Positions 111 through 63,100 of a DNA stretch of 64,000 nucleotides are shown here, piece after piece. Source of the stretch: a virus; IMG/VR virus record IMGVR_UViG_3300016457_000282, positions 1 through 64,000 of that record; one strand, written 5' to 3'. The position numbers and the translations under genes were made by a program. The notes below the pieces were generated by a model that made no database searches, was not told the DNA's origin, and saw only the letters and a list, made by a program, of their open reading frames with translations. Numbering within the stretch: the stretch's first letter is position 1; each line of letters opens with the position of its first letter.

Positions 111-1299
111 AAGTGACACTGGGCCCGTAAAACCTCTGCTGATCAACGGGGAAACACAATGGTATCCACTCAGCTAAATGAGATTTTAGATGGATTAATT
201 TTCAGTGATGGGCATATTGCTTATTGTAAGGCTGGTGACTATAGGTTCGAGTTGGGGACGACCAAGCGTTTGTACGCAGAGCAAGTTTGTAACCTTCTTC
301 GTCCTGTTATTTCCTGTTCTATTAGAGAACAAGTACGTATTGGATTTGGGAAGAAATTTATCTCTTACAGAGTTGTTGGATATAAAGCTCCTGTTATGAA
401 GAATCTTCACTATCGTTGGTATGATGATAAAAAGAAAAAGCTTCCCAAAGATTTTAGATGGACGCCTACTACTTTGAACGTTGCTTATTGTGGTGATGGT
501 ACTGTTATTGAGAATAGCCCGACTATGTGCTTAAATAGTTGGGCGGTTCCCGAGGTGAAAGAGATAGTTAGGTGCTTTGAAGAGTTGGGCTTGTATGGGA
601 CGGTTGTCCAAACCCCAACAGGACCGATTTTTAGGTTACATCAAGATTGTGCCCTAGATTTCTTCGAGTACATAGGAGACCCACTAATTCCGTTTCACTC
701 TTATAAGTGGATTACCGTTGTCAACCCCCAGCAAGCAGTTCGCGCGACTCTGTGGGACGATGACCTAGCTCAAAAGGTTGCGAGGTGTATTAAGAAGATT
801 ATGATTTTACGCGTTTGGGGAGGTTCGAAGGAACGGCGGTACTTGTCGTACTTTCCTGAGTTAGTCGTAATGGTTAATGATAAAGACGTTAAAGATGCCC
901 TTCAGAGAATCAGAACTTCAAGGAAGAAAGGTGAGGTTGTAGTTAGAGGTCGACAAGCGAAACGTGTTTTAGAAAGGGTCCATTTGTTTCTTCCGGACGA
1001 TAAACGAATGTTAGCTACAATTGCGTTAGCTTTGCCTCTTGGGCGGAGGAAGAAAGATTTGAAGGAAGTTCTATATCAGTTTTTCTGGACGAAATTTAAT
1101 GAATTAAATCCGCCCGAGAGAAGACGGGGACCCAAAAGAGAGTTGAATAGCGAACTGCGGCTGCAGAGACTGAGCGTAGAGGACACTAACCTCTTTCAGG
1201 ATCTGGTTAGTGTATACGACAGTCCGACCCCTACGGTGACGTAGGGAAGTAGTTGTACTACTTGCCCGAAAGGGTCAAGAAAAATAACAGGTTAAAGCG
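111..1299 (+). mobile_element. Group I intron in the tail tube gene
   Basis: P1: GGGCCU(105-110) pairs with GGGCCC(121-126), with U.G at the 5' splice site. P10: AAGUGACACU pairs with 3' exon GGUGUGCUU. P3-like CCUCUGC/GUAGAGG. Core motifs GCAGAGACUGAG (~1164) and ACAGUCCGA (~1219). Terminal G at 1299. Confidence 0.88.
159..1244 (+). CDS. Intron-encoded LAGLIDADG homing endonuclease
   Basis: Motifs ILDGLIFSDGHI and LNVAYCGDGT; located inside the intron. Confidence 0.85.
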   Translation: MVSTQLNEILDGLIFSDGHIAYCKAGDYRFELGTTKRLYAEQVCNLLRPVISCSIREQVRIGFGKKFISYRVVGYKAPVMKNLHYRWYDDKKKKLPKDFRWTPTTLNVAYCGDGTVIENSPTMCLNSWAVPEVKEIVRCFEELGLYGTVVQTPTGPIFRLHQDCALDFFEYIGDPLIPFHSYKWITVVNPQQAVRATLWDDDLAQKVARCIKKIMILRVWGGSKERRYLSYFPELVVMVNDKDVKDALQRIRTSRKKGEVVVRGRQAKRVLERVHLFLPDDKRMLATIALALPLGRRKKDLKEVLYQFFWTKFNELNPPERRRGPKRELNSELRLQRLSVEDTNLFQDLVSVYDSPTPTVT

Positions 1300-2523: not shown

Positions 2524-5500
2524 ATGGCCGAAGAGTATATAGTAGAAATAGGTGTTGAGAATAAGGAGGAGTTAGAAAAACTCCGTACCCAAGTCGCGAA
2601 AACCGCTGAGTCTGTCCAAACCCTTTCTGAAACTGTACGTAAGCTCGCTGAAAGTCAACGACAATTAGTTGAGTCGATTCGTAATACCGCCCGGAGTACC
2701 CAAGCTTCTGTTAAGTCCACCCAAAGTGCTTCGAAGGCCACTTCACAGTACGCCTCCTCTGTTCTCACGTTAAGGACTGCGTTTATTGCTATTGCCTCTG
2801 CAGCTGGGTTGGTAACTGCAGCGATTAACTCTAAAAAGATCTCGATGAGCTTAGCGAATAAGTTGTACGTACTTTATACGCGCTCAGCCCAAAGCGCTGC
2901 TCGAGCAGTCACCTCATTTGCAGTACAGCATCGCTTCCTTGGTACCGTTTTGACGCAAACCGTTCATATACTTTCCACTACAACTTCTGCTTGGATTACT
3001 TGGGCAAAAGGATCAATCCCTGCTACTGCCGCAATGAAACAGTCTTTAAATTCTGTGCGAGATGCGCTCAGAGTGTTGTTCACCGAGTTTCGCAGGGGAC
3101 CTTTTACTTGGATAGCTTCTCAGTTTACGCACGTTGCAGAAGTTGGTAAGTCTGCGTTCGTTTCTATTGCTGTTTATGCTGTAAGGGCAGCTACTAGGTT
3201 AGTTGAGTTCTTGACTCCTGCTGTTGCTACGGTAACGCGCTTGTTTTTGAAGTTGAGCGATTCTCTTACTCCAGTAAGGGAAGCTCTTTCTCGTCTGTTT
3301 GTTAGACTGAGAATTCCAGACGCCTTTACTAAGCTAACCGAAGTTTTTACCAGGCTTAAAGTGATAATCGTTGATGTCGCGGATGTTATCTCTACTAAGT
3401 TTGTGTCTGGACTTCGTGTCGTAGCCGACCTCTGGAAAGGCTTACTCCGACTTGCTTATTCCCTACGTGATCGTGTAGCCCAGATCGGGAGTGTGGTGAA
3501 GTCTAAGTTAGCCGGCAAGATAGGACTGACCGCTAGTTTTGCGTTTTTAGGTACTGTATTGGATAAGGTGCGAGACAAGATCTTGCAGCTCGGGGCTCGT
3601 ATTAACGAATCCCTAGGTGGTGAGGCCGTTTCTATAGGCGCGAAGTTATCTAAACCTTTTGTGGCGATGATGGGGAGTTTGACCATTCTTTCCGGGAAAC
3701 TGTTGCGTTTCTTTCCCTTGACTAAGAAGTTAGGCTCTACACTAACTACGTTGGGGTACTCCCTCGCTTCTGTGTCCTCGTTTTCGCGGTCGTGGTCTAT
3801 GGTAATGTCCCATTTGGATAAGACATTACCTGGAGTCAACGACCGATTACGCAGAGTTACTCGCGGTTTCTCAGAGTTGACCGGTAAGATTAACATACAA
3901 ACGGCCGCGCTTCCTAGATTGATCAAGGCACTTGGGGAAGTCACCTTTCACTACCTTATGATATTCAAGTTTAATGTTAGTCTAGCTCACGGATTCGAGC
4001 TCTTGGGTGAGAAGCTCTCTTACTTTGGTGAAGCCATGCTCGAGCACTTCTCCGAATCGTATAGAGTCAGTTCTGAGATGATTCGCACGCAGGTTGATTT
4101 GAACCGAGCGGTTCGGAGGTATGCTGAGTTGACCGGCGATGCTTCTATGAGTGCAAAAGATTGGCTCCAGTGGTCCGACAGACTTGCTCTTTCTGCAGGT
4201 AAAAACGTTTCAGAGATGCGCCGGGTTACCGGTGCTCTGTTGGATTTTGCGGCTTTGTATAAGTTGAACCAAAAGGAGACGAAGCGATTCATTTCTTTGA
4301 TGACAGACGTTTCGAGTTTCTTGGGCAAAGATGTGTTCGAGACCTTGCAACATGTCCACGGTGCGTTGGCTGGGTTAACTAATTCAGCCATGATTTTGGG
4401 CATTAACATAGACCACCTCAGAGAGAAGACTAAGTTTTACGAAGAACAACTCCGGAAAGAAGGCACCGAAACTGGAAAGTCCGTCAAACAAAAAGCGAGG
4501 ATGCTCGCTCTTATACAGGAGTTGAGTTACTTACAGGGTGTTAACAATAGGTTGATGGAAACAGGGTATGGTATTCTGAGACGTTATCGCGTTTCTCAAG
4601 AACTTCTCGCGGCCCAAACTGGAAATTATGTAACTCCTATTTTGAATGCTTATTACAAAATTTTGACCCGAATTAACGAGGTCATGGCTCAGCCCGGGAT
4701 TGGAGGTTTTATCACTACGATGAAGGCCGCTGGTGCCGCCTCACTTGATTTGCTAGGACGTTTTGTAAAACTCGGAGCGCAGTTGTTTGTATTGATTGAG
4801 ACTGTACATTTAGTTGAAAAGGCGTTAACAGCACTAAACGCAGCCTTTGACGTCTTTGGGATGACTCAGAGAACAGCTCTTGCTCCTCTATTCGTGATGA
4901 GAGATGGTATGGTCAAAACTAGTTTTACTGCCTCGTCACTAAGCAAAGTTCTCAAGAGGTTAAGCGTTTACATTGGTACTACCTTTGTAAACTTCTTCAA
5001 AAACGGTGCCAAGGCTGTTAAAGGCCTTGTTGTAGAGTTAAGAACTGCGATCTCCACATTAATGGCGACTAAAGTTCCCAAGGCCATTTTTGGCCCAGCT
5101 CTAGCATCTGCTATGGTTCCAGAAAGGGGTGTGATTAGGAAAGCTCTGGCTGCTAGTAAGTTGATGCAAGCGACTTTTATGGCCGAAGGGTTGGTGCTGG
5201 CGAAGAAGGTAACTCCTATGGTACAGAAGCACGCTAAACAGGTTCGAGATTTGTACTTAATTACTCATGACGTCGCCGGAGCTCAACGGGAGTGGGCTAA
5301 TACCATAATTACGTTTACTGGGGCGGCCGGGGGTTTGTCTAAAGTATGGTACACTTTCTTAGGTGTCGTTACAAAAGTTAAAGGTGCCGTGTTAAAACTC
5401 ATTAACATATTCAAAGGCTTTGCCAAGATTTTTGGGATTATTTTGATCGTCATTCCCGCGGTGTATAAAGCCTTCAAAGAAGCGCTTATCCCGGCTTTTA

Positions 5501-55755: not shown

Positions 55756-56901
55756 ATGAAGAAACAAAAGGATACAAAACTAAGAATTGATGCTTATCGA
55801 AAGGTAGGAACATCTGCTGCATTACAAATTCCGATCTACTTCGATAAGTTGCCTAGTGAAATAGGCGGTTGTCTGGTTCGAGATAGTCACATTGTAATAT
55901 CTGAAGAAGAAGATTATCAAACTCAGTTGTTTGTGTACTGTCACGAACTGCTACACTACATATTCAACCACATTAGAAGAGGTGCTGGAAAAGATCGAGT
56001 CCTTTGGGGACTAGCTATTGACCATGTTGTAAACAACTTATTAACTACTGTCCTCGAGCTTGAGTCTGTGAATTGGGTTGAACAACATAGGTTTATACTG
56101 TTTCGAGATATTCCTGATGGGCCTGCCGAGTTGATTTATCGAGAGTTACAACGCTTAGTAGATAAGACTAAAAAGGAAGGAAAAACCGAGTTTAAGTTTG
56201 GCGGCAAGACAATACGATTAGTACCGCTTACTGTAGATGGTATCAGACCCCCTAAGCACTTTACTGAACCTCTGCCGATAAGTACTGGATCATTATATGA
56301 GTTTGGGAATCATCTCAAGTCCCAAGGTAGTGTTTCTGCCGACGTGCTGCGTGAGATTGACCAAGGTTATAAGTCTCAAGTTCCTTGGGAGCGAGTAATC
56401 GCGGCTAGGATTTTGTCTTTCATAGGAAAGAAAGTTGCTACACCAACCTATACGAAGTTACCGTACTACCAAATCGCTTGCGACGTTCGTTTAGCTGGTA
56501 ACTACAAGAAGGAGTTTAATCTCGTTACGGCTTTTGATACCTCAGGTAGTATTTCGCAACAAGAACTTTCGAAATTCTGTGCTGAATATCAACGAGTTGA
56601 GAAGTTAGTTTCAGAACATTGGGTTTATGTGATAGATGCTGATATTCACGCTGTATTACATAACCCGTCGTATGACGAGCTGGTTGCGAACTTGAGAGGA
56701 GGTGGAGGTACTAGTCTAGCACCGCCTTTTGAAGATGTTGAGAAGAGAAAACTGAAACCTGACTTGTTCGTATACTTTACAGACACTTTTGGTACCTTTC
56801 CTCAAAAGACACCTACTTACTCTGTGATTTGGATTGTAGTTAGAACTTTCCAAACGTTAGACATACGAGTACCTTTTGGTACTGTTTACTATATTGATTA
56901 A
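55756..56901 (+). CDS. DUF2201-like metallopeptidase + VWA protein
   Basis: HELLH...H..R; DTSGS MIDAS; GGGGT; YFTD.FG. Confidence 0.85.
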   Translation: MKKQKDTKLRIDAYRKVGTSAALQIPIYFDKLPSEIGGCLVRDSHIVISEEEDYQTQLFVYCHELLHYIFNHIRRGAGKDRVLWGLAIDHVVNNLLTTVLELESVNWVEQHRFILFRDIPDGPAELIYRELQRLVDKTKKEGKTEFKFGGKTIRLVPLTVDGIRPPKHFTEPLPISTGSLYEFGNHLKSQGSVSADVLREIDQGYKSQVPWERVIAARILSFIGKKVATPTYTKLPYYQIACDVRLAGNYKKEFNLVTAFDTSGSISQQELSKFCAEYQRVEKLVSEHWVYVIDADIHAVLHNPSYDELVANLRGGGGTSLAPPFEDVEKRKLKPDLFVYFTDTFGTFPQKTPTYSVIWIVVRTFQTLDIRVPFGTVYYID

Positions 56902-60901: not shown

Positions 60902-61178
60902 AAAAGTAGCAGAGTAAGCTATGAAATGTTACATCTATGGCACGAAAGACAAATACTTAGCTTGCGGCAAAGCCTTGCCTAAGTGTAGTGAAGATTTTTT
61001 GTGACGCTTATGCCGGTCGTCTTATATGTTATAGCGAGGACGAGCGTATTTGTAGCAAGAGTAACAATGTTATTCAAGGCACGAGACTCTCTTTAGAAGG
61101 TTCACTGTAAGCTTGAGAAAGAGAGTTTTGTAGTAGTAGCTCGATTTAACTCAATATCAAATAAGGAGGGTTAAAAAC

Positions 61179-61793
61179 ATGAAGAAGCTCTCGGAGTTGG
61201 AAGAAAGGTTTGACGTAAAAATCCGCTTGTTGGAGAAACTTTTAGGTACTGTGCCAAAAGATCCAGAAGTCTATACTCGTTTTGTAGCAAGTAAGGCACC
61301 AGAACCTGAACTGGAAGAGGAAGAAACGGAAACCGTCGAAGAAGTAGAGGAGAGAGGTTGGACCGGATTTCATAAGAACGAGCAAGGTATTTTCATCTAC
61401 AACTACATGATCAAAGGCTTCCTTAAAAGCGCATGCGAAGTGTGCATGTCCGCAGGAGCCTTGTCTAAGATCGTTGCTTATAAGAAGTGGATCGATCTGG
61501 TAGTTTTTATTGACCCACGGCAGATACCGTTAGGAAAGAAGGAACCAGATGGTTGCTTAGAGCGACCTTTGAGAACGTTAACAGCGAAAGGTCCTCGAGT
61601 GACTGTTTGCAGAAGTGATTATGTAGATGCAGGGACTGAAATTCAGTTTACAGTGAGAATTCTGAAGAATAAAGTTGGGATTAATCGTGACGCTATTGAG
61701 CAAATGCTTGATTATGGTAAATACGTTGGGTTAGGACAGTGGAGAGGCTCCGGTGGTTATGGTCGTTTCGAAATAGTAGAAGTGTCACCTTGA
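61179..61793 (+). CDS. Stand-alone Cas7/RAMP-like protein
   Basis: N-terminal strand VKIRLLEKLLG, IKGFLKSA helix, RPLR...GPRV insert, AGTEIQFTV, C-terminal Gly-rich loop GLGQWRGSGGYGRF. Confidence 0.75.
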   Translation: MKKLSELEERFDVKIRLLEKLLGTVPKDPEVYTRFVASKAPEPELEEEETETVEEVEERGWTGFHKNEQGIFIYNYMIKGFLKSACEVCMSAGALSKIVAYKKWIDLVVFIDPRQIPLGKKEPDGCLERPLRTLTAKGPRVTVCRSDYVDAGTEIQFTVRILKNKVGINRDAIEQMLDYGKYVGLGQWRGSGGYGRFEIVEVSP

Positions 61794-62890
61794 AGTATGT
61801 AGTAGTGGTCATATGATCCTGTGTTAAAACATCATGACTTTCTCTGTATGGCGTTTGTAATGCACTGTAACGAAGCGTGAAGGTTTGTCTTTATAGAGCT
61901 AAGCATGAGCACAGTGATGCTCAGTTCCGTGAGCGGAAAATCAGTTTGCAAACCAGAAGATTACAGAGCCATCGTAGGTAGAATGGGGAAAGGTAGTATT
62001 AGCACGGAAAAGTGTAGTCGTGTAACCGGTATCGTGGTGTTATGTAATTTGATGTAAAAGTAAACTACTTTGACTAACTGAACATACGATGACTCATAGG
62101 TGGTTAGAAGAAGGGAAGTTCCTTCTCAGATGTCTCTTAAAGAGAGATTGTTCCATTATGTGGCAAAGAATGTTGTACAGTGCAGTCAAAGAGTTTTTAC
62201 GGGGCGTGAAAGCTTGGTTCAGTAGAGCAAACCAATGTTGTGTAAAGTAAAGGTATTGTATTGTTTTGCATGCGACGCACTGTCTTGGTCATAGCAATTA
62301 AGTACTGAATAACTTAGATGTAAGGAGTTTTATCAAAAGTTTTCAGAGAAAACCTAGAAGTTTGTCTCTAAGGTAGTTGACTGCACTGTTTGGTAGCCTT
62401 TTCAACATGCGTTGGTAGTTTTTGTTAAGAAAGTAAGGAAAAGTGGAAGAAAAGACAGCTCTGAGGAGAAGCTATTGCAAAGTCAACTAAAGTGAAGGTG
62501 GTGTATCGTACTATGCTGTGGAGGCTTGAGTAAGTTTAGCGAACTCGAGTGGTGGCTTCGTAATGCTCCGTGTTGTGGGGGAGTATGGTAAAGAGAGGTA
62601 CCGTATCATATTGCGAAGGTGATGTAAGGCCTGGTCCTGCACCGGTAATGTAAAGTCAACTAAAGCAGTCTGAAGTTGTGTGTGGTAACGGTTAAGTGTA
62701 CTGTGGTATTTTGAAGTGCAGTAAAGTGAAAGGTGCTGTCGCGTAACGTAGTGATCTGTATTGGCGTCTTAGATTTTTTTCTTCGCTTAAACATAGTCAC
62801 ATGATTAGGTGCTAAAGCATCACGGTTTTCTTCACGTGATCTGCAAAGTACAGTGTCGTATTCCAATGTGTGGGTTCTGTATCGTAGCGT
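61794..62890 (+). ncRNA. Non-coding array with 5-nt (NGY-NN) periodicity
   Basis: For example 62644: ggtaa tgtaa agtca actaa agcag tctga agttg tgtgt ggtaa; 62028: ggtat cgtgg tgtta tgtaa tttga tgtaa. No sense-strand ORF of 60 aa or more. Confidence 0.65.
62786..62840 (+). mobile_element. IS200/IS605-type end-hairpin remnant
   Basis: CTTAAAC..GTCACATGATTAGGTGCTAAAGCATC is near-identical to 62901-62936 and is followed by GGTTTTCTT. Confidence 0.55.
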
Positions 62891-62900
62891 TTAGAGTACA

Positions 62901-63100
62901 CTTAAACTCCGTCACATGACTAGGAGCTAAAGCATCCTGGCTTGTGATCATGCCAATGGACTATGGTGATGCACCCAGGGGTGTCGTTCCAGCTCCTGGC
63001 TCTGCGAAGGAGCATTCGATTGAATGCGTTCGTACTTTCAAGCCATAGCTCAGGCCAGGGACGTATTACTGCTCCTGCCCTATAGGGGCATACACCAGGA
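62901..63100 (+). ncRNA. omegaRNA (HEARO-like) scaffold of the IscB element
   Basis: GTCAC..GGAGCTAAAGCATCC..GCTTG opening hairpin; CACCCAGGGGTG..TTCCAGCTCCTGGCTCTG; CAGGCCAGGGACG; directly upstream of iscB. Confidence 0.7.

Follow-up and report, generated by a model that had tools for sequence, protein, structure and literature searches.

What is a single RAMP-like protein doing in the genome of a tailed phage, and what is the periodic DNA that follows its gene? The question is raised by a stretch of 64,000 nucleotides (the window), positions 1-64000 of a contig of 150,430 nucleotides that is an IMG/VR virus record and carries phage tail genes. A sequence-only reading had proposed that a 204-aa protein with RAMP hallmarks and a downstream NGY/NN array form a non-CRISPR RNA-guided system, and had pointed to a likeness to VIPR-type systems. 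The proposal is supported by the fold of the protein, the periodicity of the array, the linkage of the two and the homology to the Vipr family of Escherichia phage SUSP1, from which the mechanism would follow by analogy. We conclude that the locus is very probably a VIPR (Viral Interference Programmable Repeat) system of a tailed phage of ~75 kb, composed of the 204-aa Vipr and a vrRNA array on the same strand. This likeness was sound: VIPR was reported in preprints of April to October 2026, among them bioRxiv 10.64898/2026.04.26.720920 and 10.64898/2026.04.26.720927, and the kind of system found here is therefore already known.

The contig is a perfect palindrome about an axis at 75,215 and matches its own reverse complement with 0 mismatches. 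What looks like a second RAMP-plus-array locus, at 85,858-89,252, mirrors the one in the window, and the same phage assembled separately measures 75,197 bp. Either a fold-back artefact of assembly or a hairpin-linked form may account for the palindrome.

The protein and its relation to SUSP1 Vipr

The ORF of the 204-aa protein is intact and is preceded by a strong Shine-Dalgarno sequence (Table 1). It encodes the IKGFLK segment and the GLGQWRGSGGYGRF loop that had been singled out as RAMP hallmarks. Downstream of it come, in this order, ~1.1 kb of array region with no credible ORF, a weak HEARO/omegaRNA match and an IscB gene. The genome gave no match to Cas1 or to the Pfam RAMP families and no CRISPR-like repeat array was found in it, in line with the earlier remark that other cas genes and a CRISPR array are lacking. 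The protein itself had no match in Pfam, only a weak match to an unnamed family in PHROGs, and nothing relevant in the PDB when searched as a single sequence. Promoter and terminator scans of the locus gave nothing above shuffles.

Table 1. Positions of the features of the locus, numbered from the first nucleotide of the window
Feature	Positions	Strand	Basis
Shine-Dalgarno AAGGAGG, 9 nt 5' of the vipr ATG	61163..61169	+	Read from sequence
Predicted vipr gene, 204-aa stand-alone RAMP	61179..61793	+	
Array cluster A: 7 + 5 GYNNN units, 17-nt gap between	61857..61933	+	HMM parses and in-phase GY run
Array cluster B: 5 + 6 units joined by "cg"	62002..62058	+	HMM parses
Non-periodic spacer within the array region, two short perfect hairpins	62062..62211	+	RNA fold
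Array cluster C: 8 + 4 units, single-G join	62212..62272	+	HMM parses and in-phase GY run
Array cluster D (main): ~58 units, 10 blocks of 4-9 units	62472..62762	+	HMM parses
Array cluster E: 6 + 4 units, single-G join	62843..62893	+	HMM parses

The fold was explored with an AlphaFold2 model built on 38 homologues (pLDDT 84, pTM 0.79). The top PDB structure matches of the model all belong to the Cas7 family (best Foldseek E 3e-8), which agrees with the RAMP fold that had been expected. The model displays an RRM core with a helical insertion at approximately residues 29-50, helix-1 at residues 75-92 (containing IKGFLK), a beta-hairpin at residues 125-149 that is rich in invariant Arg and is read as the thumb, and the G-loop at residues 184-196. 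Within the G-loop, G184, G186, R189, G192 and G195 are invariant in the family, and the 204-aa protein keeps every invariant family residue.

PDB chain 36pp_D, "SUSP1 Vipr protein", was found among the matches of the family profile, with the G-loops aligned. The SUSP1 vipr gene was located at NC_028808, 28474-29061, minus strand, and its relatives were collected for a second family profile. Alignment of the two profiles with hhalign gave 95.5% and an E value of 1.6e-8 over 179 columns, end to end, and the comparison with the single SUSP1 sequence was weaker (76%, E 2.2e-5). In the profile alignment, W188 and R189 correspond to W178 and R179 of SUSP1, which stack on G2 and Y3 in the cryo-EM structure (bioRxiv 10.64898/2026.04.26.720927). 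The first G (G1) of the GGY triplet is read in SUSP1 by two residues, Asp177 and His17. The former aligns to Q187, which is nearly invariant in the present family, and the segment of the latter aligns to a gap; the G-loop thus reads G-x-G-Q-W-R here and G-x-G-D-W-R in SUSP1. For the thumb residues, the correspondence to SUSP1 R138 is not reliable. Model and profile alignment identify the 204-aa protein as a predicted Vipr, a minimal stand-alone RAMP related to Cas7.

Period 5 and the punctuation of the array

The spacing of GY dinucleotides was analysed by autocorrelation. Over positions 61794-62890 it reaches +0.20 at lags 5, 10 and 15 and is close to zero or negative at other lags, and this periodicity is absent inside the vipr ORF. 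The lag-5/10/15 statistic for 61794-62900 is 0.222, against a mean of -0.001 (sd 0.021, maximum 0.076) for 1000 dinucleotide shuffles (z = 10.4), so that the peak at 5 foreseen for this DNA is present. When ~1275 sliding segments of 300 nt were ranked across the 64-kb window, the best 20 all fell within 61751-63000, on the plus strand only. Runs of at least five consecutive in-phase GY, searched on both strands of the window, occur only in 61909-62643. As a positive control, the lag statistic marks the two known SUSP1 vrRNA regions, on the strand of the vipr gene, with hardly any other signal across that 90-kb genome.

In the rest of the contig, period-5 signals come only from pentapeptide-repeat ORFs. 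Two adjacent pentapeptide-repeat genes of 335 and 247 aa, located past the window at contig positions 66943-68717 and again in the mirror half, give 5/15-nt periodicity on both strands and could fool a pure periodicity scan.

The ~1.1 kb lacking a sense ORF had been parsed as in-register pentamers. The pentamers are real, and all the examples quoted in the sequence-only reading fall in the HMM parse; they do not, however, form one run. The HMM parses give ~100 GYNNN units in five clusters of tracts, each tract having 4-9 units (Table 1). Between tracts there is either a phase shift of one base or a non-periodic spacer, the spacers measuring 63-199 nt and ~560 nt in total, and every one-base junction in the array is a G. 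In cluster D, where the local periodicity is the highest in the window (0.28-0.33), five junctions consist of a single G, with ag, gga and an 11-nt gap at the remaining ones. The occupancy of GY per tract is 70-100%, with several tracts at 70-80%.

The same grammar was observed across 66 homologous IMG/VR loci, in which 563 of ~630 short gaps between HMM-parsed tracts are exactly 1 nt long and 506 of these 563 are G, with internal blocks mostly of 5-6 units. One extra base, in almost every case a G, divides the array into blocks of 5-6 pentamers, which are probably units of processing or of register. The array in the window is less regular than those of most relatives (local statistic 0.22-0.33, versus 0.4-0.6 in many loci). 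This lower regularity, the ~560 nt of non-periodic spacers and the abutting IS-derived sequence indicate that it may be partly decayed.

The spacers are dissimilar to one another. The one listed in Table 1 folds as RNA with z = -2.77, only 1 of 200 shuffles folding equally well, and its hairpins lie at ~62108-62128 and ~62133-62150. The other spacers and the array itself showed no structure beyond shuffles in RNA folding. No repeated or conserved 3' tail was found in 61794-62900, and neither the hammerhead nor other Rfam RNAs were detected in the window arrays at E<=1, nor any Rfam RNA at gathering score in the arrays of 14 homologous loci.

The suspected relaxation of the triplet from GGY to NGY is borne out by the base preceding GY, which is G in 18% of the in-phase units here versus 72-85% in the SUSP1 arrays. 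The repeat of the window is NGY/NN, which the preprints would write as YNNNG, and not the canonical GGY with both G conserved. A first G that is not conserved fits the replacement of Asp177 by Q and the loss of the His17 segment, which hold the residues that read G1 in SUSP1. Family-wide, a G-loop of the form G-x-G-Q-[WFY]-R accompanies only 37% G before GY, and the argument from the replacement of D by Q is drawn from two families only.

Homologous loci, targets and the IscB neighbour

The association of gene and array postulated for the window extends to its homologues. A same-strand period-5 GY array lies directly beside the gene in 64 of the 66 loci, whose proteins are 29-87% identical. 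The array is usually downstream and sometimes upstream of the gene, and in nearly all loci GY lies on the strand that codes for the protein. The closest relatives (81-87% amino acid identity) are similar in their DNA only as far as the stop codon, and the arrays there are not alignable. The locus is identical in 10 near-identical contigs from several samples; since these share an identical array, they hold no information on array variation. Two groups of related gut-phage loci do have alignable arrays, in which the mismatch rate is 0.03-0.14 at G, 0.16-0.19 at Y and 0.19-0.34 at the three N positions, N varying 2-10 times more than G. Such a pattern is to be expected of a constant scaffold whose guide positions change fast.

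Homologues of the ORFs that neighbour the gene in the window were found in none of the 66 loci. No cluster of non-Vipr ORFs is common to more than 10 of them, except for antisense ORFs inside the gene. Neither an accessory (vap) gene nor a 3' tail is conserved in the clade. It comprises 1806 protein clusters (50% identity) at E<=1e-3, or 1179 if the threshold is set at E<=1e-10; none of the best 120 lists NCBI or UniRef as a source, and a scan of 185,579 species genomes found relatives in only 5 MAG contigs. Almost all that is known of the clade comes from metagenomes. Hydrogenobaculum phage 1 (NC_028651), which has a cultured host, encodes a distant homologue at 3128-3898 (28% identity, hypothetical in the annotation), with a weak region of period-5 GY (0.15-0.19) immediately downstream at 3700-4700; this is possibly a VIPR locus in a phage of Aquificota.

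Targets were sought under the xNN rule. Every tract was scored against the 75-kb genome with positions 3-4 or 4-5 as guide, and the best matches equalled those of shuffled-order controls. An exact gapped scan of IMG/VR with the 9-unit tract at 62645 gave 7 matches versus 8 for the shuffled-order control, which is chance level, and none of the matches extended into the neighbouring blocks. Four of the seven lie in motifs of homing-endonuclease genes, with the skip on codon position 1 (L085 2838-2863, L086 8512-8537, L090 9098-9123 and L091 418-443). They share the motif EE(S/T)KKR(M/L)S, which in these phage homing-endonuclease-like genes we take to be of NUMOD3 type. Patterns of 10 units across blocks gave 0 matches or 4 unrelated, AT-rich ones; the contiguous NNN reading, searched as two 18-mers, gave 0; and the arrays of the family matched the 0.65 Mb of homologous loci no better than shuffles did. 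Under the published rule a block of 5-6 units specifies only 10-12 bases, so that exact-match scans have low power. Such a number of specified bases is short for a unique target.

The array abuts an IscB/omegaRNA unit, whose complete IscB gene (RRXRR and HNH, 487 aa) lies at 63110-64573 and ends beyond the window. Upstream of IscB, the HEARO/omegaRNA match at 62911-63069 is weak (28 bits, E 0.003, below the gathering score). The omegaRNA region starts with a stretch (62882-62943) to which the 62 nt at 62767-62828 are 73% identical; a second, partial copy of the omegaRNA 5' region is located 115 nt upstream of the first. Near its 3' end, the interval that the sequence-only reading had given to the array includes part of this copy (62786-62842). 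Cluster E sits between the partial copy and the full IscB omegaRNA; with ten VIPR pentamers between the two, the guide position of IscB falls on array sequence. All 10 near-identical contigs share this arrangement.

IscB was considered as an accessory gene of VIPR, an idea rejected on the ground that the 66 loci contain no IscB homologue within 5 kb of the gene. We treat IscB and its omegaRNA as an independent mobile element, an unrelated insertion against the 3' end of the array. This OMEGA/HEARO pair is also RNA-guided and lies directly downstream but does not belong to the VIPR unit. Two further ORFs, one LAGLIDADG homing-endonuclease-like and the other for a second HNH endonuclease, are present at window positions 159-1244 and 55756-56901 (phrog_11023, phrog_1314); counting IscB, the phage has several selfish nuclease genes.

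The probable assignment to VIPR and its meaning

The closest characterized system is Type II VIPR (Escherichia phage SUSP1 and a P. fulva prophage; PDB 36pp). Both have a stand-alone RAMP of ~200 aa, homologous over its full length and with the W-R pair of the G-loop conserved, and a phage-borne, same-strand array of 5-nt period in which G-Y is conserved and the following bases vary; neither is accompanied by cas genes or a CRISPR array. The window locus differs in its repeat (NGY/NN instead of GGY/NN), in the Q that replaces D177 and the missing His17 segment, and in having no vap gene. It also lacks the repeated 3' tail or pseudoknot of ~35 nt and the vrRNA units of ~100 nt, the tails being plainly visible in SUSP1. 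Moreover, its blocks of 5-6 units begin with an extra G, whereas SUSP1-like arrays have 9-16 uninterrupted repeats.

Relaxed repeats are not foreign to VIPR. The April to October 2026 preprints describe seven types, alternative repeat consensuses and staggered arrays. Those of bioRxiv 10.64898/2026.04.26.720920 include the non-canonical repeats YNNNG, NNNGG and NNNNG and arrays staggered by 1 nt. A VIPR array is expected to have a minimum of four units of YNNGG or a related consensus, and a two-gene operon with vap is typical but not universal. Arrays of WGT/NN and TGH/NN have also been reported (10.64898/2026.10.21.760802), and an independent language-model survey lists 21 clusters of non-canonical 5-mer arrays beside Vipr-like folds. 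These non-canonical arrays share with the window a relaxed triplet with one degenerate position and a Vipr-like fold encoded beside the array. The staggered arrays, with abutting, tail-less vrRNAs offset by 1 nt, are the closest published description. One difference is the source: the published census was drawn from NCBI NR, and the best 120 clusters of the present clade have no NCBI or UniRef source.

By analogy with SUSP1, the array would be transcribed as vrRNA and one protomer would bind each N-G-Y-N-N pentamer, with the thumb and the G-loop sequestering or flipping out G and Y. The two N bases after Y would be presented over successive units as a discontinuous guide, which would pair with double-stranded DNA while every third target base is skipped. 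Binding would then silence the genes of a competitor, be it a phage, a satellite or another mobile element. Blocks are probably cut, or the register restarted, at the extra G.

It is possible, though we hold it unlikely, that the clade represents a VIPR type with a different architecture and code. The guides would then be tail-less blocks of one G and 5-6 GYNNN units, ~26-31 nt long and cut or registered at the extra G, and the fifth position would be read as well, giving three bases per pentamer or some other skip rule. With the residues for reading the first G gone from the protein, the fifth position varies as much as the two guide positions do, and a position that variable may take part in target reading. 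A poorer prospect is that the locus derives from VIPR and no longer works, the protein gene persisting beside a degenerating array invaded by IscB. The tracts with 70-80% GY occupancy, the five clusters split by 63-199 nt of non-periodic sequence, the periodicity below that of most homologous loci, and the partial omegaRNA-like copy and full IscB element at the 3' end are what such decay would leave, but the ORF is intact, with a strong Shine-Dalgarno sequence and all invariant family residues, the locus recurs unchanged in 10 contigs from several samples, and G punctuates every one-base junction. Degeneracy is in addition a frequent internal feature of published vrRNAs themselves, as stated in 10.64898/2026.04.26.720920.

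Two readings outside VIPR can be given hardly any weight. The protein could be an orphan Cas7 from type III or type VII CRISPR-Cas, for example a decoy or anti-CRISPR acting on host crRNAs, with the periodic DNA unrelated to it. This is very improbable, given that the array accompanies the gene in 64 of 66 loci and that the protein, without a Pfam RAMP match, has full-length profile homology to the Vipr family. Compared with the Cas7 proteins of class 1 CRISPR-Cas (Csm3 of type III-A, Cas7 of type VII), the step is 5 nt and not the 6 nt of class 1 crRNA binding, the window has no CRISPR array, Cas1 or other cas genes, and the guide would be discontinuous. That the periodic tract acts as DNA, as iterons or as a phased protein-binding platform in replication, packaging or nucleoid organisation, is scarcely credible: the lack of a promoter or terminator above shuffles would suit such a role, but the signal is strictly strand-specific, GY sharing the coding strand with the gene in nearly every locus, the fold is that of an RNA-binding RAMP whose homologue was solved in complex with repeat RNA, and the N positions turn over fast, as guides do. 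A VIPR system is thus the preferred reading of the locus.

Given the published descriptions, what may be new is the quantified grammar of G-punctuated blocks, the link between the replacement of D by Q and the loss of the first G, and the size of the clade (1806 clusters, or 1179 at the stricter threshold) together with its absence from NCBI and UniRef among the best 120 clusters. The case also illustrates that a reader without tools can spot such systems in raw sequence.

VIPR is a newly described form of RNA-guided DNA recognition, of which only SUSP1-like systems have been characterized in depth so far. In the present clade the whole system is one small protein and its array. It raises the questions of how tail-less, G-punctuated arrays are processed and of the minimum length of a specific discontinuous guide. 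The clade, in which the replacement of D by Q in the G-loop goes together with a lost first G, is also a natural test case for the reading of the repeat by the protein.
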